A DNA stretch of 64,000 nt. Source: an uncultured Candidatus Rokubacteria bacterium (GTDB taxonomy: Bacteria > Methylomirabilota > Methylomirabilia > Rokubacteriales > CSP1-6). The notes beneath the pieces were generated by a model that did no database searches, was not told where the DNA came from, and saw only the letters and a list, made by a program, of their open reading frames with translations. The translations under genes were made by a program, and so were the position numbers. The stretch's first letter is position 1; the number at the start of each line of letters is the position of its first letter. Where the stretch lies: contig CAVYTA010000005.1 in the NCBI GenBank assembly GCA_963771355.1, positions 192,001 through 256,000 on the forward strand. Reading direction: 5' to 3'. Shown one piece after another: positions 2,382 through 43,561 of this stretch.

Positions 2382-3509
2382 ATGGCCGGCATGCCGGACC
2401 CGCGGCCACCGTTCCGCGCCGACCATGTCGGCAGCCTCCTGCGGCCGCCCGCGCTGAAGGCGCTCCGCCTCGAGCGCGAGGCCGGGCACGCCACTCCCGA
2501 CGCCCTCCGCGCCGCCGAGGACGCGGCCATCCGCGACGCGGTCGCGCTTCAGGAAGGCGTGGGACTCCAGGGCATCACCGACGGCGAGATGCGCCGGAAG
2601 TCCTGGCACATGGACTTCCTGCTCCAGCTCGGTGGCCTGTCCAGCGAAGGCAAGTCGCTGCCGGTGACCTTCACCGGTGCCTCGGGAGAGATGTTCTTCA
2701 CGCGTCCCGATCTCTCGGTGACCGCGCGCATCACCCGGCCGCGGCCCATCTTTGTCGAGGGCTTCCGCTTCCTCCGCTCGGTGGTGGGGCGCACCGCCAA
2801 GCTCACTCTCCCGTCCCCGTCCATGCTCTACACCCAAGTCGGGAGGGCGAACGTTGATCGGAACGTCTATCGCAGTCTCGACGGTTTCGCCGAGGACACC
2901 GTCGCCGCCTATCGCGCGGAGATCGCCGACCTCTACGCGGCGGGCTGCCGCTATCTCCAGCTCGATGACGTGAGCCTGGCCTATCTCTGCGATGAGTCGA
3001 TGCGCGAGCAGGGACGCCAGCGGGGTGACGATCCCGACGCGCAGCTCGCGCTATCCGTCAAGATGGTCCAGGGCGTGCTGCGCGACCGGCCGCCCGACCT
3101 CACCGTCTGCACGCATCTCTGCCGCGGCAACTTCCGCTCGTCGTGGCGCGCGCAGGGCGGCTACGAGCGGGTGGCCGAGACCATCTTCACGCAGATGCCG
3201 TACGACGGCTTCTTCCTCGAGTTCGACGACGCGCGCTCGGGCGACTTCTCGCCGCTGCGCCACGTGCCGAAGGGAGTGCGGGTGGTGCTGGGGCTGGTGA
3301 CGTCGAAATCGGGCACGCTCGAGAGGAAGGACGACCTCAAGCGGCGGCTGGACGAGGCCTCGAAGTACGTCCCCCTGGACCAGCTCGGCGTGAGCCCCCA
3401 GTGCGGCTTCTCCTCGACCGTCGAGGGCAACGCAGTCGGGGTGGAGCAGCAGCGCGCCAAGCTCGCCCTCTGCGTCGAGCTGGCCCACGAGGTGTGGGGC
3501 GGGCTCTAG
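2382..3509 (+). CDS. Cobalamin-independent methionine synthase II family (MetE C-terminal-domain-only)
   Basis: RADHVGSLLRP, TDGEMRR, HLCRGN, LEFD, SPQCGFSS zinc-ligand motifs. Confidence 0.9.
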   Translation: MAGMPDPRPPFRADHVGSLLRPPALKALRLEREAGHATPDALRAAEDAAIRDAVALQEGVGLQGITDGEMRRKSWHMDFLLQLGGLSSEGKSLPVTFTGASGEMFFTRPDLSVTARITRPRPIFVEGFRFLRSVVGRTAKLTLPSPSMLYTQVGRANVDRNVYRSLDGFAEDTVAAYRAEIADLYAAGCRYLQLDDVSLAYLCDESMREQGRQRGDDPDAQLALSVKMVQGVLRDRPPDLTVCTHLCRGNFRSSWRAQGGYERVAETIFTQMPYDGFFLEFDDARSGDFSPLRHVPKGVRVVLGLVTSKSGTLERKDDLKRRLDEASKYVPLDQLGVSPQCGFSSTVEGNAVGVEQQRAKLALCVELAHEVWGGL

Positions 3510-4363
3510 CCTCCCGCGTCGGTCGCGCGCCCGAGACGGCGGAGCAGGTCCTCGGTGGCGGCGTCGGCGGGGAAGAAGCATTCCACGCGCAGCTCGTGGA
3601 GCGTGATGTCGTAGGGGACGCCGAGGCCGGCCAGCGTCGAGAAGAAGGACAGCCGCAGGTCCCCCTTGGCGAGCTCCACCGCGAGGAAGGGGGCCGTCGA
3701 CGCGTCCAGATCGACCGTCCGCCACTGGCGGGGTATGTCGGGGTAGGCCAGGAGCTCCTCGAGGAGGCGGACCGTCTCGGGATCGCCCGCGCTTCGCAGG
3801 AGGTCACGGTGAAGCCACTGGATGAGGGCGGCGGCGGTGGCCTCCCAGTTCACGATATAGGGCCGCATGCCGCGTGGGTGGCAGAAGAGGCGCATGGCGT
3901 TGGGCGGGCCCAGCGCGGCCGCCTCGGCGGGATCGAGGAAGAGGCCGACGAGCCGCTGCGCGCCCTGGTTGGTGAGCAGGATATTCCACCGGCCGTCCAC
4001 CACCAGGCCGGGGTAGGGCTCCTGCTGGCGCAGCATGAAATCGAGCGCCCGCCGGACCTGCGCCATCTCGGGCGCGTCGAGCGCCCGCTCGCGATACATG
4101 GGGGCGAAGCCGGCCGCGAGGAGCAGCTCGTTGCGGGCCCGCGGCGGGACCTCCAGGACGCGCGCCAGCAGCAAGAGCATCTCGCGGCTCGGCTGGGCGC
4201 GGCCCGTCTCGATGAAGGAGAGGTGTCGCGCGGAGACCTCGGCCTCGACGGCGAGGGCCAGCTGGCTCATCCGTTGCCGCTCCCGCCACTGGCGGAGCAG
4301 TCCCCCGACGGTGCGGCCCGCGCGCACGCGATTCACCCGCAGCCCGTCCCGTGCTCCTTGCAT
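3506..4363 (-). CDS. XRE-family HTH regulator with MmyB-like ligand-binding domain
   Basis: LRQWRERQRMSQLALAVEAEVSARHLSFIETGR HTH; QEPYPGLVVDGRWNI, LRVECFFPAD. Confidence 0.9.
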   Translation of the reverse strand: MQGARDGLRVNRVRAGRTVGGLLRQWRERQRMSQLALAVEAEVSARHLSFIETGRAQPSREMLLLLARVLEVPPRARNELLLAAGFAPMYRERALDAPEMAQVRRALDFMLRQQEPYPGLVVDGRWNILLTNQGAQRLVGLFLDPAEAAALGPPNAMRLFCHPRGMRPYIVNWEATAAALIQWLHRDLLRSAGDPETVRLLEELLAYPDIPRQWRTVDLDASTAPFLAVELAKGDLRLSFFSTLAGLGVPYDITLHELRVECFFPADAATEDLLRRLGRATDAGG

Positions 4364-4397
4364 GCCGGGAGTCTACACCGCGCGCTGAATGTGGGAC

Positions 4398-4414
4398 ATT
4401 ACCTCGGAGGTAAT
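4398..4414. promoter_or_regulatory. Perfect palindromic operator ATTACCTC-G-GAGGTAAT
   Basis: Perfect 8-bp inverted repeat, AT-rich in a GC-rich background, between the divergent XRE regulator and the thioesterase operon. Confidence 0.7.
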
Positions 4415-4476
4415 TGAAGCGGGGCCGCTCCCCGGCCACGATGTGGACCACCACTGACGCCCAAGGAGGCTTCCTG

Positions 4477-4887
4477 ATGACCGGTAGCGGCCTGGATCCT
4501 GCGCTGATGACGGAGCGGTGGAAGGGGACCCTGGGGGAGCATCTCGGCATCGAGTTCGTCGAGACGGCGCCGGACCGGGTGCGCGCCCGGCTCCCGATTC
4601 GCGACGCGCTCCGTACCGTCGGCGGCGCCTTGCACGGCGGCACCCTCATGGCCTTTGCCGACACGGTGGGCGCGGTGGCCACCGTGCTCAACCTGCCCGA
4701 GGGCGCGACCACCACCACGCTCGAGTCCAAGACCAATTTCTTCGCCGCCGGCCGCTCCGGCGCCGCGCATGCCGAGTCCACGCCGCTCCATCGCGGCAAG
4801 CGGACCCAGGTCTGGCAGACGCGCGTGACCGACGACGGCGGCCGGCTGCTCTCGCTCACCATCCAGACCCAGATGGTACTCACGTGA
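4477..4887 (+). CDS. PaaI/hotdog-fold thioesterase
   Basis: GALHGGTLMAFADTVGA, LESKTNFF, HRGKRTQVW; AAGGAGG SD. Confidence 0.9.
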   Translation: MTGSGLDPALMTERWKGTLGEHLGIEFVETAPDRVRARLPIRDALRTVGGALHGGTLMAFADTVGAVATVLNLPEGATTTTLESKTNFFAAGRSGAAHAESTPLHRGKRTQVWQTRVTDDGGRLLSLTIQTQMVLT

Positions 4888-36797: not shown

Positions 36798-37865
36798 CTA
36801 CGACGCGCCGAGGGCCTTCTCGACGAACATCTTGGCGTCGAACTCGTCGGCCACCTTGGCGTCGTTCTCGAGGATGGCGAGGGCGTCCACCTGGGCAAAC
36901 TCCATCACGCCCATGTCCTCGTAGGCCTTGCGCACCCGCGGGCCCCAGAGGCCGATGTCCTTGACGGTGGGGACGATTCTCGAGAAGAGCCGCGTGCGGA
37001 ACATCTTCATGTACTCGGACTTCTCGACCGCCTCCACGCATTCCTTCACCGGCAGCCCGAGGTTCTCCCACACCTCGCCCTGGTTGAACCGGTCGCGCAT
37101 GTGGTAGCAGGCCTCCACCACGAACTCCTCGCGCTCGTCCCGCTCGGCGTCGGTGAGCTCCGGGTAGTACTCGCGGAGCGCCAGGCGGCCGAAGGCGACG
37201 TGGCGCGCCTCGTCCTGCATGACGTAGGCGTTGACGCCGGCGGCGAGCGTGTTCGACGAGGTGTCGCGGATGCGCTGGAAGGCGGCGAGCGCCAGGCCCT
37301 CGATCAGGACCTGCATCCCGAGATAGGTCATGTCCCAGCGCTTGTCGGTGATGGTGCTCTCCAGGAGGAGCGCGAGGGTACGGGTGATGGGATAGGCGAG
37401 CTTGACCTTCTCGTGCAGCAGCCGCGCGTAGGCCTCGACGTGGCGGGCCTCGTCCATCACCTGGGTGGCCGCGTAGAACTTCGCCTGGATGCTGGGGACG
37501 GTCTGGACGATCTTGGCCGTCGCGATCAGCGCGCCCTGCTCACCGTGCATGAACTGCGAAAGGGTGTGGGCCTGGAGGTTGCGCCGTACGTGGGCCCGCT
37601 CCTTGGCGTCGAGCCGGTTCCAGAGGTCGGTGCCGTAGATCGCGATGGTGCGGTCGTCGAGCCCCATGGGATTGTCCGGATCCACCGGCAGCGACCAATC
37701 GAGCCGCTCGGCGGCGTCCCACTGCTGCTTCTTGCCCTTCCCGTAGAGCTTCAGCAGATCCGCGCTGCCGTCCTCGTATTCCCAGGTGAAGGCGGTGGTG
37801 GTCTGGCCCTCGACCTTCCACTGCGTCTGCTCGACGGGCAGGCGGTACAGGAACTGGCTCGACAT
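36798..37865 (-). CDS. Ferritin-like diiron oxygenase (AurF-like family)
   Basis: HGEQGA, two DEARH motifs, IEGLALAAF. Confidence 0.85.
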   Translation of the reverse strand: MSSQFLYRLPVEQTQWKVEGQTTTAFTWEYEDGSADLLKLYGKGKKQQWDAAERLDWSLPVDPDNPMGLDDRTIAIYGTDLWNRLDAKERAHVRRNLQAHTLSQFMHGEQGALIATAKIVQTVPSIQAKFYAATQVMDEARHVEAYARLLHEKVKLAYPITRTLALLLESTITDKRWDMTYLGMQVLIEGLALAAFQRIRDTSSNTLAAGVNAYVMQDEARHVAFGRLALREYYPELTDAERDEREEFVVEACYHMRDRFNQGEVWENLGLPVKECVEAVEKSEYMKMFRTRLFSRIVPTVKDIGLWGPRVRKAYEDMGVMEFAQVDALAILENDAKVADEFDAKMFVEKALGAS

Positions 37866-37965
37866 CGGGTGTGACCTCCAATCCAGGTTTCGCACCGAGG
37901 CCCGCGGGCCTTCGCCCCGGCCAATTGTCGGAAAATCATATCATTCGCGTTCGCCGGGCACCAGA

Positions 37966-37991
37966 CGCCAGGCGGCCATTGCCAGGGCGCC
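37966..37991 (+). repeat. 26-bp direct repeat, left border of islet
   Basis: CGCCAGGCGGCCATTGCCAGGGCGCC, identical to 41563-41588. Confidence 0.9.
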
Positions 37992-38219
37992 CCAGGAAGG
38001 AAATACTGCCGACGTTAGCTTACCCCGCTTCCGGGATCGGTCCACGTCTTGGCTTCATGAATCAGAAGGACGGCACTTCCTTTCAGCCGGTCCCATGAGA
38101 GCGGAACAACATACCCCGTTACCCAGTCGTTAGTCCCTAACCTCGGTAGTCCCGAAAGCTCGCATCATAACAGGAGCAACTATTGCCCGCCAATGCTGGG
38201 CCCGTCTCGTCCTGACGCG

Positions 38220-38235
38220 AGGCACGGCATATGCA
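38220..38235 (+). promoter_or_regulatory. Sigma54 (-24/-12) promoter-like site upstream of csbD
   Basis: AGGCACG-GCAT-ATGCA vs consensus TGGCACG-N4-TTGCW, correct GG-N10-GC spacing. Confidence 0.55.
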
Positions 38236-38281
38236 GTCCCCCTGAAGAAGCGGATGCCTAACAGACAGTGGAGGACAATTT

Positions 38282-38728
38282 ATGAACGCGGATGTCTTTG
38301 CAGGCCAGTGGAAGCACATGCGCGGTGACGTGAAATCGTGGTGGGGGAAACTCTCCGACTACGACGTAGACAGAATCGAGGGTCAAAAGGACAAGCTGAT
38401 CGGCTTAGTGCAAGAGAAATACGGATATGCTCGCGCTCAGGCCGAGCAAGAGGTCGAGCGGCGATTCAAGGAGTGGAATGACAAAACGGGCGGGACGTTC
38501 GCCAAAATGACGGCCACCGCTCAGGAGCTCGGGGCGAGTGCCGCCACCAGAGCGAACGAAACGGCCACAGTCGTCGGGGAGAAGATCGCGTCGGCTGGCT
38601 CGTACTTGCGGGACAAGAAATTTGCCGACCTGGCACCCGGCGTTACTTCGTTGATCCGCACCTACCCGGTCCAATCTTTACTCATTGGTATCGGCTTTGG
38701 CTATTTGCTTGGCCGGCGCTCGTGGTAA
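38282..38728 (+). CDS. csbD: CsbD-family stress protein with C-terminal ElaB/DUF883-like membrane tail
   Basis: AGQWKHMRGDVKSWWGKLSDYDVDRIEGQKDKLIGLVQEKYG; tail IRTYPVQSLLIGIGFGYLL; GGAGG SD. Confidence 0.85.
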   Translation: MNADVFAGQWKHMRGDVKSWWGKLSDYDVDRIEGQKDKLIGLVQEKYGYARAQAEQEVERRFKEWNDKTGGTFAKMTATAQELGASAATRANETATVVGEKIASAGSYLRDKKFADLAPGVTSLIRTYPVQSLLIGIGFGYLLGRRSW

Positions 38729-38899
38729 GGGCGACGCCTGCGATGAAGCGCCCCGGTCGATCTCTCCCTGGTCGCGAGGCTCTGCCAACTCCATGTGCCG
38801 CGTCGGCGGAGCTTTTTCACGGCGTCATTCGCGCCGGTATTCTTGGAGGACCATTTACGGCCCCGTCGCATCCGCTCACGTTTTCCAGGCCGTCGTACT

Positions 38900-38915
38900 T
38901 GGCAGACGCCTTGCT
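38900..38915 (+). promoter_or_regulatory. Sigma54 promoter-like site
   Basis: TGGCAGA-CGCC-TTGCT, 21 nt before the ATG at 38937. Confidence 0.6.
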
Positions 38916-38936
38916 CATCCAAGGGAAGGGAACCCA

Positions 38937-39251
38937 ATGAGGCAGCTGTTTCTTACCAGTTTGGTCGTGGAGATTAGTCTCACGGCGGCGTGCCCTCGAG
39001 GAGGAATCAGGACCGTCCGACCCCAGGAAGCCCTCCGATCGACGCCGTGCAGCGGCCAAGACCTTCAGGGACTCGTCACCGCGCTACGCGCAGCACAGGA
39101 TCGGCGACGAACGCTAGAGCAGAACCTCGCCACGCTCAACTCCGACGCCGTTCCCGTGGGTAATCGATACCGGGTAACACAGACTCACCTCAGACTCGCC
39201 AACCACAATTGCGACAGCGTAAAGACCGCCAAACCTTCAACGAATGAGTGA
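38937..39251 (+). pseudogene. Probably chimeric or degenerate ORF
   Basis: Signal-peptide-like start, then a coiled-coil segment LQGLVTALRAAQDRRRTLEQNLATL; atypical codon usage. Confidence 0.3.
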
Positions 39252-39260
39252 GGACACTTC

Positions 39261-39470
39261 ATGAACGGCGGTACCTCTGACGATAAAACGGTGGGGAAAG
39301 TCGCCACAATGACTGCCGCGGCTCAGGAGCTCGGGGCGACTTACGCCACCAAGGCGAACGAAGCGGCCACAGTCGTCGGCGAGAAGATCGGATCGCTGGC
39401 GACCTTGATCCGGGAAAACGCTCCGCACGAAGGCGGCCTTGGTTATTTGCTTGCCCGGCGCTCGAGGTGA
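39261..39470 (+). pseudogene. Internally deleted paralog of the C-terminal half of the csbD-fusion gene
   Basis: DKTVGKVATMTAAAQELGA...ANEAATVVGEKI...GLGYLLARRS matches 38480-38725 at both DNA and protein level. Confidence 0.7.
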
Positions 39471-39712
39471 ACATGGAGCGCGGATCGCCACGCCGCGTGA
39501 GGCCAGGCTTCCTGTCATTGATCGGCGGCATCGCGACTGATGCCAAAGAATTGCTGCTTCGGCGGCATCGGGAGCGTCGGGACCGGCGGCTTCACTTTGC
39601 CGGTTCGCTGAAATTTGTTGACGAGATCGGCGGCATGGACTATCCCGCATTTCACGCTCCTCCTCCGGGCCCCCGCCGGAACTCACTTTCGGGAAGTCGG
39701 GGAAACGTCGTG

Positions 39713-40429
39713 ATGCATCGTGCCGTTGCCATCCTGTTGGTGCTGATCGTCGTTGTGCCCTCGGGGTGCGCTTCCACGTCTCCGCCTCAACCCACCGCGC
39801 GTCCGTTCGAGAACCTCCGCCAGCTCGTTGTCGTCGCGTCCGGCGATACCACCTTCGCGGTGACCGAGCACAGCGCGGAGCCCGGCCGCACGTTCGACGA
39901 GATCCTGAAGTGGGGCTCATTTGGCGGCTGGTGGTGGAAGCCCGCCGCCGACCTCGCCCACCGAGGGATCAACTGGCTGCTCCAGCTCAACCGCAAGTCC
40001 GACGCCAGCGCGGGCCTCGGGGGCGTCTCGCCGCGCGAGGTGGTCGCCGCGGCCTTCGCCTCGACTCTCCTCGCGAGCGGACAGTACGACGAGATCACCA
40101 CACTCACGGCCGAGCCCAGCGGCGACGATCGCCGAAGCACGGACGCGATCGTACGGCTCGCCGTGCCGGCGTGGGGCCTGGTGCGCGTGCGCGAGGGCGA
40201 ACCCGATCTTCACTCCACGTTCGCGGACGTGCGCGCCGAACTGGTCTTGCGGGGCACGGGCGTCATCGTCTGGAAGCGTTCCGAGGACGTCACGGATTTT
40301 GAGCGTGTGCCCCTCGCCACGTTCTCCGCCGATCGTAATTTCACGCGCCAGCAGCTGATCGACGTTCTGGAACGCGGGGGCCAACGCCTCGCCAGCGAGC
40401 TGCTCTATGCGAGAAGCGCCGGCCGATGA
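39713..40429 (+). CDS. Hypothetical lipoprotein
   Basis: Hydrophobic N-terminus ending PSGC; host-like codon usage. Confidence 0.7.
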   Translation: MHRAVAILLVLIVVVPSGCASTSPPQPTARPFENLRQLVVVASGDTTFAVTEHSAEPGRTFDEILKWGSFGGWWWKPAADLAHRGINWLLQLNRKSDASAGLGGVSPREVVAAAFASTLLASGQYDEITTLTAEPSGDDRRSTDAIVRLAVPAWGLVRVREGEPDLHSTFADVRAELVLRGTGVIVWKRSEDVTDFERVPLATFSADRNFTRQQLIDVLERGGQRLASELLYARSAGR

Positions 40430-41031
40430 ACGCCGGCCGCTCGGTGGCGATTGCGGCACTCCTGTGTAGCCTGGCGCTGGCTTCGGGCGCCGGGTGCGCG
40501 CGCAATCAGAGGCTCGACGTGGGCTACCCGGAGGCCGGCGTCAACCGCGCGCTGCTGGCCTCGGTACCGCCGCAGCGCGTCGGCATCAGCCCGGTCGTCG
40601 ATCGTCGACTGGACACGAGCCGTATCGGCTCCCTGCCGAACGACGGCCGGGCCATGGTGACGCGCCGCCCCGTCAGCGACATTGTGCGCGACGCGCTCAC
40701 GGTCGAGGTCAGCCGTAACGGTCACGTGGTGCTTCCCGACGCCCAGGATGTGGTGCTCGCTGCCGAGGTCGAAGAGTTCTGGCTCGACGTGGTCGTCGGC
40801 CGCTCGCATGCGCAGTATGTCGGCAAGGTCGTACTCGCGCTCGCCGTGATCGACGGCCGCAACGGCGAAACGTTGTTCACCAGGCACTACGCCGCCACTA
40901 AACGTCGCGAGGCCGATGCCGACGCCAAGGACGTCGCCCGCGAGGTGATGGATGCCGCGCTGGCCCGCACGCTGCACGACTTCGCCACTGACCCGCAAGT
41001 GGTCGCCGCGTTCGACCGTCGCGCTCGCTGA
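40426..41031 (+). CDS. Hypothetical lipoprotein (YajG-like)
   Basis: GAGC lipobox; V.PVVDRR motif; ATGA overlap with the upstream gene. Confidence 0.7.
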   Translation: MNAGRSVAIAALLCSLALASGAGCARNQRLDVGYPEAGVNRALLASVPPQRVGISPVVDRRLDTSRIGSLPNDGRAMVTRRPVSDIVRDALTVEVSRNGHVVLPDAQDVVLAAEVEEFWLDVVVGRSHAQYVGKVVLALAVIDGRNGETLFTRHYAATKRREADADAKDVAREVMDAALARTLHDFATDPQVVAAFDRRAR

Positions 41032-41225
41032 CGTGCCGAGCTCCCTCGATCCAAACGTGCGTCGCCGCGCGATGGTACGCTAGGGCTTCACCTGTTCTAG
41101 GTACGAGATCATATGGTCTAGTGTAAGTGGGGTTTCGAAGCCGTTCGAGCGGTTGCGGCCGCGAGCTTGGTTGCCTCCTGCGCGGCCGGCCGGGAGACGT
41201 CAAGTAGCGGCACAGTCGGCACAAT

Positions 41226-41470
41226 TGAGTGACATTCCTGAGTGAAGTCTGGGTAAATGAAAAGGGGCTAACCCCCTCGTCGTTCATGGCTGCGGGGGCT
41301 GGATTTGAACAGCGACCCTTGGGTTATGAGCCCTTTCCCGTTCGCGACCACAGCCCACGCCACAAACAACACGTCGTAAACTAGCGCCTCTCACGCAAGT
41401 GACTTGGGCGCTCTTTGGCTCTCGTTGGGAGCAACTTCCTGGGTAATTCCCGGGTGAAGTCTGGGTGCGA
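41226..41470. repeat. Arm-type integrase-binding-like direct repeats on both sides of the tRNA fragment
   Basis: ATTCCTGAGTGAAGTCTGGGT (41234-41254) vs ATTCCCGGGTGAAGTCTGGGT (41446-41466), 19/21 identical; triplets of YGRGTR at 11-13-bp spacing. Confidence 0.7.
41287..41333 (-). other. 3' half of tRNA-fMet (anticodon arm to CCA); att-core-like remnant, not a functional tRNA
   Basis: Minus strand GGGCTCATAACCCAAGGGTCGCTGTTCAAATCCAGCCCCCGCAGCCA: CAT anticodon arm, T-loop, CCA end; 5' acceptor strand and D-arm absent. Confidence 0.88.
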
Positions 41471-41562
41471 CGATGCGCGCTTGATGGCGACCGTGACAGC
41501 GCTGCTCCGTCTGGTTCCGTAAGCCTCCTACCGAACCTTGGTTCTCGAAGGCTTTTCGTTGC

Positions 41563-41588
41563 CGCCAGGCGGCCATTGCCAGGGCGCC
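41563..41588 (+). repeat. 26-bp direct repeat, right border of islet; contains the -35 of the downstream SDR promoter
   Basis: Identical to 37966-37991; TTGCCA (41576)-N17-TAAGGT (41599). Confidence 0.9.
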
Positions 41589-41611
41589 GGGGCCACGCTA
41601 AGGTACGCGCC

Positions 41612-42421
41612 ATGTCCACCCCCACCGCGGGCCCGTCCCTGGACGGGCGCACCGTACTCATCACCGGTGCCGCCGGCGGCATTGGCGCCGCCACCGCGCG
41701 TCGGCTCGCCGCCGCGGGGGCCCGCCTGGTGCTCGCCGACCTCGACGGCGGCGGGGTCGAGAAGCTCGCCGCGGAGCTGGGGGCCGCCGCGGTGGCCGCC
41801 GACGTCACCCGCCCGGCCGATATCGCGCGAATGGTCGATGAGCCCTACCGGCGCTGGGGCCGGCTCGACGTGCTGTTCAACAACGCGGGCGTCATCCGGG
41901 TGCAGCCCATGCTGGACGTCACCGAGGCGGAGTGGGACCGCGTGCTCGACGTGAATCTCCGCGCCGTGTTCTTCGTGCTGCAGGCGGCGGCGCACCGCAT
42001 GGTGGATCAGACGCCGATGGCCGGCTCGGAGCTGCGCGGCAAGCTCATCCAGACCGCCTCCATTGCCGCCTATCGCGGCGCCAATCCGATGGTCGGGCCG
42101 TACGCCGCCTCCAAGGCCGGCGTGGTGAGCCTGACGCGCACCGCCGCCCAGGCGCTGGCGCGCCGGCGCATCACCTCGAATTGCATCTGCCCGGGCGCGG
42201 TGGACACGGCGATGTGGCAGCAGATCGATCGCGAGTGGGGCGCGCTCGAAGGCCTCGCGCCGGGGGAGGCCTGGAAACGCCGGACTTCCGGGATTCCGCT
42301 CGGCCGTCCCGAGACGGCCGACGACGTGGCGGGGCTGGTGCAGTTTCTCGCCGGCCCCGACTCCGACTACATGACGGGCCAGGCCATCAACATGGACGGC
42401 GGCCTCGTCATGGGCAACTAG
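41612..42421 (+). CDS. SDR oxidoreductase (sorbitol/acetoin dehydrogenase-like)
   Basis: TGAAGGIG, LFNNAG, YAASK, CPGAVDTAMW, MTGQAINMDGG. Confidence 0.9.
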   Translation: MSTPTAGPSLDGRTVLITGAAGGIGAATARRLAAAGARLVLADLDGGGVEKLAAELGAAAVAADVTRPADIARMVDEPYRRWGRLDVLFNNAGVIRVQPMLDVTEAEWDRVLDVNLRAVFFVLQAAAHRMVDQTPMAGSELRGKLIQTASIAAYRGANPMVGPYAASKAGVVSLTRTAAQALARRRITSNCICPGAVDTAMWQQIDREWGALEGLAPGEAWKRRTSGIPLGRPETADDVAGLVQFLAGPDSDYMTGQAINMDGGLVMGN

Positions 42422-42446
42422 CCGCGCGCGTTCTTCCCCCACCTTT

Positions 42447-42598
42447 TGCGGATGTCCGTAACCTCCGCATCGAGCAATAATTACACGCCCTTACACGGTT
42501 ATTCCGGACCGGCTCGCCCGCTCCCAGGCCGGCCTCCTCCCGCTCGCGACTGTGTGGCGGGCGCTTGCGACGCACCGGCCCCTGGCACGGTGGATGCT
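42447..42598 (+). promoter_or_regulatory. Sigma54 promoter with upstream enhancer-like palindrome
   Basis: TGGCACG-GTGG-ATGCT at 42583-42598; TGCGGA-N11-TCCGCA at 42447-42469; TTACAC-N4-TTACAC at 42481-42496. Confidence 0.6.
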
Positions 42599-42764
42599 CC
42601 GTTCTGCGATGCATGACGCGGAAAGAGATGCGTCGCCGGCTCCGTGACGGTCTTGCCCATCTCGGGCGTCTCCTCGAACTCGCACCTCGCCGTCACCCAT
42701 GGGTGATGGTGGTGCGAGCGCCCGGGACCACGGCGGTCGGCGCGCGATCAACAAGGAGGACGTC

Positions 42765-43145
42765 ATGAACGGAGAAGGTACGGCAACCACCTTCGTCGCC
42801 ATGGTGGCGTTCGGCATCGTGGTGCTGCTCGCCATCGGGATCATCGGGCGCCTGCTCGATCTGCGGCGCCGCCGCGAGGACGAGGCGCTCGGTCTGCAGT
42901 CGCGCGTGTCCGACGCGTTGATGCTCGAGCCCGGGCTCGCGGGGCTCGCGGTGACCGCCAGCATGCACGTGCCGCTGTGGCCGCGGAAGGCGCCGAAGCT
43001 CGAGATCGCGGGGCGGGTGCCCACGCCCGACCAGCACGAGCTCGCCTCCCGGGTCGCCATGCGGACGCTCGCCGACCGTGCCGCCCAGGTGGAGATCGAG
43101 GACAAGGTGTGGGTGGATCCCGTGATGCGGGAACACGCAGCGTGA
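42765..43145 (+). CDS. Membrane-anchored BON-like domain protein
   Basis: AAGGAGG SD; TM helix followed by LQSRVSDALMLEP...LEIAGRVPTPDQ...VEIED. Confidence 0.65.
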   Translation: MNGEGTATTFVAMVAFGIVVLLAIGIIGRLLDLRRRREDEALGLQSRVSDALMLEPGLAGLAVTASMHVPLWPRKAPKLEIAGRVPTPDQHELASRVAMRTLADRAAQVEIEDKVWVDPVMREHAA

Positions 43146-43561
43146 AGTGGCTGAAGGGGCGCCGGGCCGCGATCGGCGCGGTCACGGCGCTGCTGGTTAC
43201 CGTCGCCGGTTACTCCGTCACGCGGGCACTAGTCGACGTTCACCCGGCGCCGAAACCCGACCGCGGCCGCGAGTCGCGTGGCTCCAGCTTCGAGGTAGAG
43301 GACGCCACGGTGAAGAAGGTGGATCTCGCGGAGTCTCGGATCGAGCTGGCGTCGGATCTGCTGGGACTGTTCGGCGCCCGGCTCGTGGTTACGGATCGCA
43401 CGGAGATCCTGCTGGACGGCCAGCAAGCCCGCCTGGCCGACCTTCCCGAGGGGGCGCGGGTCCAGGCGAGATACGACCTGCGTGACGGCATGAAAATCGC
43501 CCGAACGATCACCGCGGAGACGCCCAAGCCGGAGCCGGTCCCCACCCCCAGCGGCCGTTAG
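43142..43561 (+). CDS. Hypothetical exported protein (OB-fold-like repeat)
   Basis: N-terminal [23 protein letters not shown] motif; GTGA coupling. Confidence 0.65.

Follow-up and report, generated by a model that had tools for sequence, protein, structure and literature searches.

The window, that is, the whole 64,000-nt stretch of uncultured Rokubacteria DNA that was analysed, carries an AurF-like diiron protein gene and a divergently oriented short-chain dehydrogenase gene, and between them lies a 3571-bp block that contains a tRNA-derived attachment site. The features of this region, each with its basis, are as follows.

36798..37865, minus strand: host flank, AurF-like diiron protein gene (PF11583).
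37966..37991, plus strand: left copy of a perfect direct repeat of 26 bp, which is host sequence in duplicate (self-comparison).
37992..41562, no strand: inserted DNA, 3571 bp (63.1% GC, versus 69.9% in the flanks).
38282..38728, plus strand: CsbD-like stress protein gene (PF05532, E = 3.8e-12).
39261..39470, plus strand: incomplete second copy of the CsbD-like gene (83% across ~120 nt).
39713..40429, plus strand: gene for a cargo protein that fits no Pfam or PHROG family (start uncertain).
40426..41031, plus strand: gene for a second cargo protein without a Pfam or PHROG family (profile searches).
41234..41255, minus strand: downstream (P′) arm, consisting of two units of 11 bp that are predicted arm-type sites for an integrase (repeat and family alignment).
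41256..41286, minus strand: remnant of the family's terminator-like hairpin, ~17 nt deleted (alignment of 14 junctions).
41287..41333, minus strand: tRNA-fMet 3′ half, with one deletion and two substitutions relative to the intact gene (sequence alignment).
41324..41330, minus strand: inferred 7-bp crossover, equal to the anticodon loop (the tRNA identity of the family's half sites begins at the anticodon stem-loop).
41334..41466, minus strand: upstream (P) arm, comprising a conserved spacer and three 11-bp units at ~41435-41466 (family comparison).
41467..41562, no strand: unique non-coding DNA, 96 bp, from the P arm to the right repeat (no homologue among the fetched loci).
41563..41588, plus strand: second copy of the direct repeat, on the right side (spanned by a run X1 contig).
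41612..42421, plus strand: host flank, short-chain dehydrogenase gene (PF13561, PF00106).

The perfect 26-bp repeat, which encloses the site together with 3.3 kb of cargo and was overlooked by the first-pass annotation, was reproduced in none of 1000 resamples, and its sequence occurs in the genome at these two places only. Among 159 genomes of the family, the 26-mer was matched elsewhere only at the empty site of the same-genus genome G002 (contig C23), where the flanks are joined through a single copy that is identical at 22 of 26 positions. Nine orthologous loci from the same genus were examined and seven were parsed; the 3571-bp insert is missing between the same two genes in all seven, and six have a short spacer of 113-178 nt, G003 being the exception. 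At the same promoter spot, G003 (C85; L042, ~2650-4709) carries an unrelated 2-kb insert that lacks a duplication and replaces a few target bases. The promoter spot between the AurF-like and dehydrogenase genes may be break-prone. The spacer segment that holds the 26-mer is present only in the window's genome (G000), G002, and G003, and the folding of the 26-mer is unremarkable (z = -0.38). Both ends of the insert are non-coding, and no gene is cut.

The left junction of the insert was bridged by contigs of runs X1, X2, and X9, which come from two studies, and the right junction by run X1 (spans: X1, 37889-41439 and 41421-41886; X2, 37870-41436; X9, 37889-38043). Both junctions are thus real, provided that no bridging run is the source sample. 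No circle joint or empty-site joint was found among the joints listed for seven runs, in contigs that lose rare forms. At window position 38014, contigs of X5 and X9 run leftward into other sequence, which suggests that the cargo has another context; the diverging end has no match in the genome, and two matches with two mismatches each were found in the five genomes searched. The left cargo is without coverage in run X7, 61% of which was read, and in runs X2, X5, and X6 the 39 bp at 41094-41132 turn up again in a contig of unrelated context.

The sole intact initiator tRNA gene of the genome lies on a contig different from that of the window (C7:761833-761909), and 42 of its 45 final bases are matched by the minus strand of 41287-41333. 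This alignment bears out the first-pass description of a tRNA-fMet 3′ half from which one T-stem base is gone, and adds two substitutions that the description had not included, one of them at the discriminator position. No intact tRNA is present, as had been stated: ARAGORN found no tRNA gene in the window, and Rfam returned no match across 37000-43500. A nearby 5′ half, which the first-pass annotation had itself set against its reading, does not occur in the window at up to four edits; the genome's one 5′ half of an initiator tRNA lies inside the intact gene, so the matching half that a split or permuted tRNA would have elsewhere was not found.

The same-orientation 21-nt repeats reported at 41234-41254 and 41446-41466 are real (19 of 21 positions identical); no such repeat arose in 1000 resampled sequences, and the genome holds no further copy at up to two mismatches. 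Each had been described as part of a triplet of YGRGTR units, and units do stand at 41226, 41239, and 41250 and at 41440, 41451, and 41462. The left unit at 41226 falls outside the family pattern, being spaced by 13 nt versus 11 elsewhere, and is a local feature. Similarly, the two CGGCACA copies are present at 41208 and 41217 and are not a family trait, since none of 75 distinct downstream-arm flanks has them. The absence of an integrase was confirmed: none of the genome's 11 PF00589 matches falls in the window, the nearest on the same contig is ~216 kb away, and a large serine recombinase was matched nowhere in the genome. No gene for recombination or for transfer was seen in the 3.6-kb block as a whole.

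The cargo has a history that is partly separate from that of the site. The gene pair at 39713-41031, whose two products we take to have lipoprotein-like N-termini, is 94-96% identical in genomes G004 and G164, where no att site adjoins it, as is also the case at 19 other homologous loci. On the evidence of these near-identical pairs, the cargo is judged to be mobile independently of the att site as well. A donor cassette with the window cargo was not found when the left part and the gene pair were each searched in the 159 genomes and the flanks in the fetched loci.

The 233-bp module of the window proved to be a member of a conserved attachment-site family of Rokubacteria-type genomes. The P′ arm is present in 43 of the 159 family genomes, and the P triplet in 15 of 251 genomes of the phylum, all 15 of them in the window's family; reversed-pattern controls gave none. 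A species-wide pattern scan returned 103 stretches, with 48 Rokubacteria or Methylomirabilota by title among the 79 loci listed; viral contigs had no matches to the att patterns. The 94 distinct arm sites comprise 13 that follow an intact tRNA, 30 that follow a tRNA half, 24 of the upstream type, 13 without a tRNA part, and 14 solo sites. About seven solo matches, roughly half of the 14, lie in unrelated organisms and were taken as chance. Solo or collapsed arm repeats at L053, L069, L081, and L103 look as though a module had been lost between two terminal repeats.

Fourteen distinct complete junctions were found, the window's included. In relatives, the two halves occur separately, as an intact tRNA with the downstream arm and as the upstream arm with a tRNA half, and the full form occurs inside stacks. 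The arms thus stand on both sides of the complete site in the same orientation and on one side at the outer junctions, and the core is the host tRNA 3′ half starting from the 7-bp overlap, as in a lambda-type attP or an attI. Sequence conservation ends ~7 nt or less beyond the arms, and the flanks are varied, with 75 downstream flanks falling into 64 clusters and 33 upstream flanks into 24. The stacked cassettes of relatives have attL on one side and attR on the other at the target gene. These findings support the first-pass view that an attP-like site is carried here as cargo.

In G188 (contig C2), a stack of 164 kb behind the intact tRNA (2.065-2.230 Mb) holds 22 motif clusters under loose matching and three complete junctions; its spacing runs from 1.2 to 26 kb, with 9 of the 21 gaps below 5 kb. 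The only tyrosine integrase of this stack is frameshifted, is of a sister type, and adjoins the tRNA; no serine recombinase was found in it. In four stretches of the stack that were scanned (55 ORFs), the cargo includes three long class I aminoacyl-tRNA synthetase genes of the Ile/Leu/Val type (L188:7763-10462, L185:7805-10258, and L185:14526-17288).

Of the 14 junctions, the one in the window has decayed furthest, with 77% identity to the majority sequence compared with 79-97% for the others. Its arm units and 7-bp loop are nearly intact; the anticodon loop itself is unaltered, with the anticodon stem arms as an inverted repeat on either side. A tRNA rebuilt from the window junction would score 110.9 in ARAGORN versus 120.7 for the native gene, and 10 of the 13 other junctions regain the native score. 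Given the single initiator tRNA gene in the assembly, such a damaged tRNA may have penalised normal integration. The window site is predicted to be an orphan.

Most arm loci have no integrase beside them, and a tyrosine-integrase sequence was seen in only three of the 79 listed. One of these, L120, encodes a 367-residue tyrosine integrase (PF00589). When it was used as a query, having been selected for its adjacency to an arm, the best 80 of 225 metagenome loci were retrieved. The last 12 nt of the gene, including the stop codon, lie within two mismatches of an arm unit in 7 of the 33 distinct gene ends listed, compared with none of 11 among sister integrases. Arms or the hairpin occur elsewhere in 13 of the 74 listed loci at an identity of at least 75%, always on the opposite strand and with several of the 13 redundant, compared with 1 of 28 sister-integrase loci. 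The remaining 61, many of them short, have no arm elsewhere; among the 26 loci of at least 6 kb, nine have one. Gene-end overlap and co-occurrence tie the arm repeats statistically to integrase loci, a link whose absence the first-pass annotation had regarded as fatal to its reading, and on these sequence grounds the L120-type integrase is the likely cognate partner of the arms.

The catalytic R-K-H-R-H-Y set is invariant in an alignment of 22 sequences. The L120-type proteins have ~75 residues ahead of the lambda-matched part, and these extra residues match no family. A 36-codon integrase fragment at L068, which is 92% identical and lies ~27 bp from a P′ arm, is a deletion remnant. Copies of at least 80% identity are present in only 3 of the 159 family genomes, many of which are incomplete, compared with arms in 43. 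The partner enzyme was not found in the window's own genome (99.8% complete), the best match having 46% identity. That genome's tRNA-fMet, on C7, carries a different arm family, and sister integrases at tRNA-fMet (L213 and L216) have other arms. The frameshifted integrase next to the tRNA in G188 was considered as a cognate enzyme and dropped, being 38-59% like the L120 type, as was a recurrent 350-420-residue recombinase of arm-bearing genomes, which has no arms nearby; we take the latter to resemble an integron integrase.

An ORF of 96-98 residues lies directly ahead of the integrase gene (L120:203-493, L291:5140-5430, and L284:5831-6124). It had no Pfam match in three instances tested and no PHROG match in two, and from its position would be a candidate excisionase or regulator. 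Loci L282, L120, L291, L301, and L324 have a variable cargo of ~2-4.5 kb between the downstream arm and the 3′ end of the integrase gene, and in these loci the integrase stop codon sometimes lies within a further arm unit, as though cargo had been added between units.

The crossover of the window site has not been recombined, and the insert ends in host sequence that does not resemble the tRNA; we therefore infer from the sequence that the family integrase did not insert the block at its present site. Because the junction is the most decayed of its kind and yet the two 26-bp copies still agree at every base, its decay probably occurred before the move, at an internal stack position. The reading that we prefer, with confidence evenly poised, is that we see here a complete but decayed junction from a tRNA-fMet island family, which arrived as an excised, integrase-less cassette circle and was captured by a repair-type event, its own crossover being unused. 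An L120-type integrase is predicted to bind the 11-bp arm units and to recombine within the 7-bp anticodon loop; repeated integration would stack cassettes behind the tRNA, most of them losing or never having had the enzyme, and stacking would create internal junctions with arms on both sides. Excision of an internal cassette in an enzyme-bearing donor would yield a single-junction circle of 3571 bp. Once in a cell that lacked the enzyme, this circle would have been opened 96 bp from the P arm, in the one stretch that holds no genes, and inserted where the promoters of the AurF-like and dehydrogenase genes diverge, with duplication of 26 host bases. The single junction, the uncut genes at both ends, and a size within the range of the G188 stack spacing favour such a circle, and the window's genome has two Ku genes.

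As the main rival reading, the insert may have been a linear piece of a tandem stack that ran from the last 96 bp of an upstream cassette through the junction into 3.2 kb of the cassette behind it, and was joined with the same 26-bp duplication. This is possible, and we hold it tentatively in view: it requires no excision step, complete junctions are natural inside stacks, and the probable prior decay is what an old internal junction would be expected to show, although decay equally fits an excised internal cassette. Other displaced junctions exist, including one in the window's genome that carries 1.9 kb of a stack. Non-coding ends and uncut genes follow in a single step from a circle opened in one gap; nevertheless, a linear piece accounts for them and for the single junction nearly as well. 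The first-pass proposal of a circular intermediate inserted by another route is therefore upheld as to the route, for which both the empty site and the 26-bp duplication speak, with a circle the more probable form and a linear piece the less probable. Its proposal of a tandem-island junction fits the probable origin of the site and not its present position.

Three further explanations were weighed. The 26-bp repeat has the perfection and length of an att core, and might be that of a second site-specific recombinase, the 3.6-kb block being an element of its own with the tRNA junction as a passenger. The unrelated 2-kb insert at the same spot in G003 also speaks for it; however, that insert came without a duplication and replaced a few target bases, the window's block encodes no recombinase, and the restricted occurrence of the 26-mer and its spacer segment and the lack of a notable fold also argue against this explanation, which we consider improbable. 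The first-pass suggestion of a docking site, here a working secondary site kept for visiting elements that supply an integrase in trans, found no support in this genome. Its arm units and loop are nearly intact, strains from several studies share the arrangement, and stack-internal junctions do act as targets; yet no contig seen shows an integration into the window copy, which is the most decayed, and the partner is missing from the genome's matches and rare in the family, so that we doubt this strongly. An assembly artefact would be conceivable in a genome that is probably metagenome-assembled and has repeat-rich islands, but other runs, provided that they are not the source sample, contain contigs that span each junction, and half of a split tRNA gene is opposed by the confinement of the genome's only 5′ half to the intact gene; either can scarcely be entertained.

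Several known systems share parts of this arrangement. The CIMEs and chimeric attI sites of streptococci are likewise integrase-less, att-keeping blocks stacked at a tRNA 3′ end with hybrid junctions, and CIMEs are reported to be more numerous there than autonomous elements (PMC7563491, PMC5812530). The window junction, in contrast, comes from another phylum and lies outside a stack, in a promoter region where 26 bp of target are duplicated. In place of attL and attR at the target gene, its block ends in 26-bp sequences that are not tRNA-derived, and it contains a single internal junction. A lambda-type attP of mycobacteriophages resembles the window site in its core, a tRNA 3′ half from the anticodon loop, and in its repeats on both sides (PMC10865867). 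Lambda-type integrases share the catalytic residues of the L120 partner. The window site differs in that it is not on a phage and would rebuild a damaged tRNA. No prophage or phage satellite is indicated, with no viral-contig matches and no PHROG for the two cargo proteins of no known family.

In Dehalococcoides, many tandem islands, bounded by target repeats, are likewise found at one RNA gene, ssrA; they lie within ~100 kb, and 15 are without an integration module (PMC3146451). That system uses a serine recombinase and tmRNA, whereas the Rokubacteria family has a probable tyrosine integrase, tRNA-fMet, and far fewer integrase-bearing members. The tycheposons of Prochlorococcus are also tRNA-anchored, with successive integration and partial tRNAs as its marks, and their targets include a tRNA-Met (10.1101/2020.12.28.424599); partial tRNAs are described as marks of integration elsewhere too (PMC9897764). 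Tycheposons, however, carry an integrase and often replication genes, and the window block has neither. Non-homologous end joining (NHEJ) takes up foreign DNA at chromosomal breaks in Sinorhizobium, which is likewise a homology-independent entry at an unrelated site (PMC6379672), and the window's genome has the Ku genes noted above. The capture events described there have mainly deletions at incompatible ends, and the word "duplication" occurs 0 times in the main text, so the 26 duplicated bases are left unexplained by that report.

Accretion, integrase-less cassettes, and hybrid junctions are thus established, and the odd position is the unusual part. A literature search that covered few subscription papers listed nothing on this attachment-site family, nor on any displaced junction that had brought about a long duplication of its target. 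The locus offers a base-exact case of island DNA that has come out of a tRNA hotspot and settled between two core genes with a known empty site, and defines an attachment-site family and a candidate integrase for an abundant uncultured soil lineage. An intact junction together with the integrase might serve as an integration tool. A broader reading, which we regard as unlikely and largely conjectural, is of an integron-like cassette system on tRNA-fMet, with a conserved module of 230-250 bp between small and highly varied cassettes, a rare itinerant integrase that shuffles them and whose gene terminates in the arm, and stranded circles that cannot go back and are captured elsewhere. If true, it would bring island genes into the core chromosome, seed new docking sites, and leave long target duplications.

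Displacement from a tRNA-fMet stack is not unique to the window site. In the same genome, another displaced tRNA-fMet junction stands at C5:997822 (L010, C5:997400-999733), ~600 bp behind a tRNA-Glu; it belongs to a different arm family and is accompanied by an integrase C-terminal fragment. Over 1.9 kb, the sequence there shares 99% identity with C7:761865-763777, where the C7 stack begins. That stack (C7:761833-799330, L206-L208) is the genome's own at tRNA-fMet and holds several remnants of this other arm family, with no PF00589 match on the contig. Half sites of the window's family lie upstream of the tRNA in G190 (522 kb), G215 (200 kb), G187 (143 kb), and G002 (83 kb), and the one in G215 adjoins a tRNA-Glu fragment; those of G215, G187, and G002 could come from contig wrap-around. 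No clear bracketing repeat was found at the displaced sites in other genomes. A scan of the window's genome returned 32 isolated direct repeats of 20-60 bp, several of them at tRNAs. Perfect repeats of 25-50 bp that stand 2-4 kb apart at C5:874815-878764, C6:415122-417020, and C6:2747026-2751017 are candidates for similar insertions.
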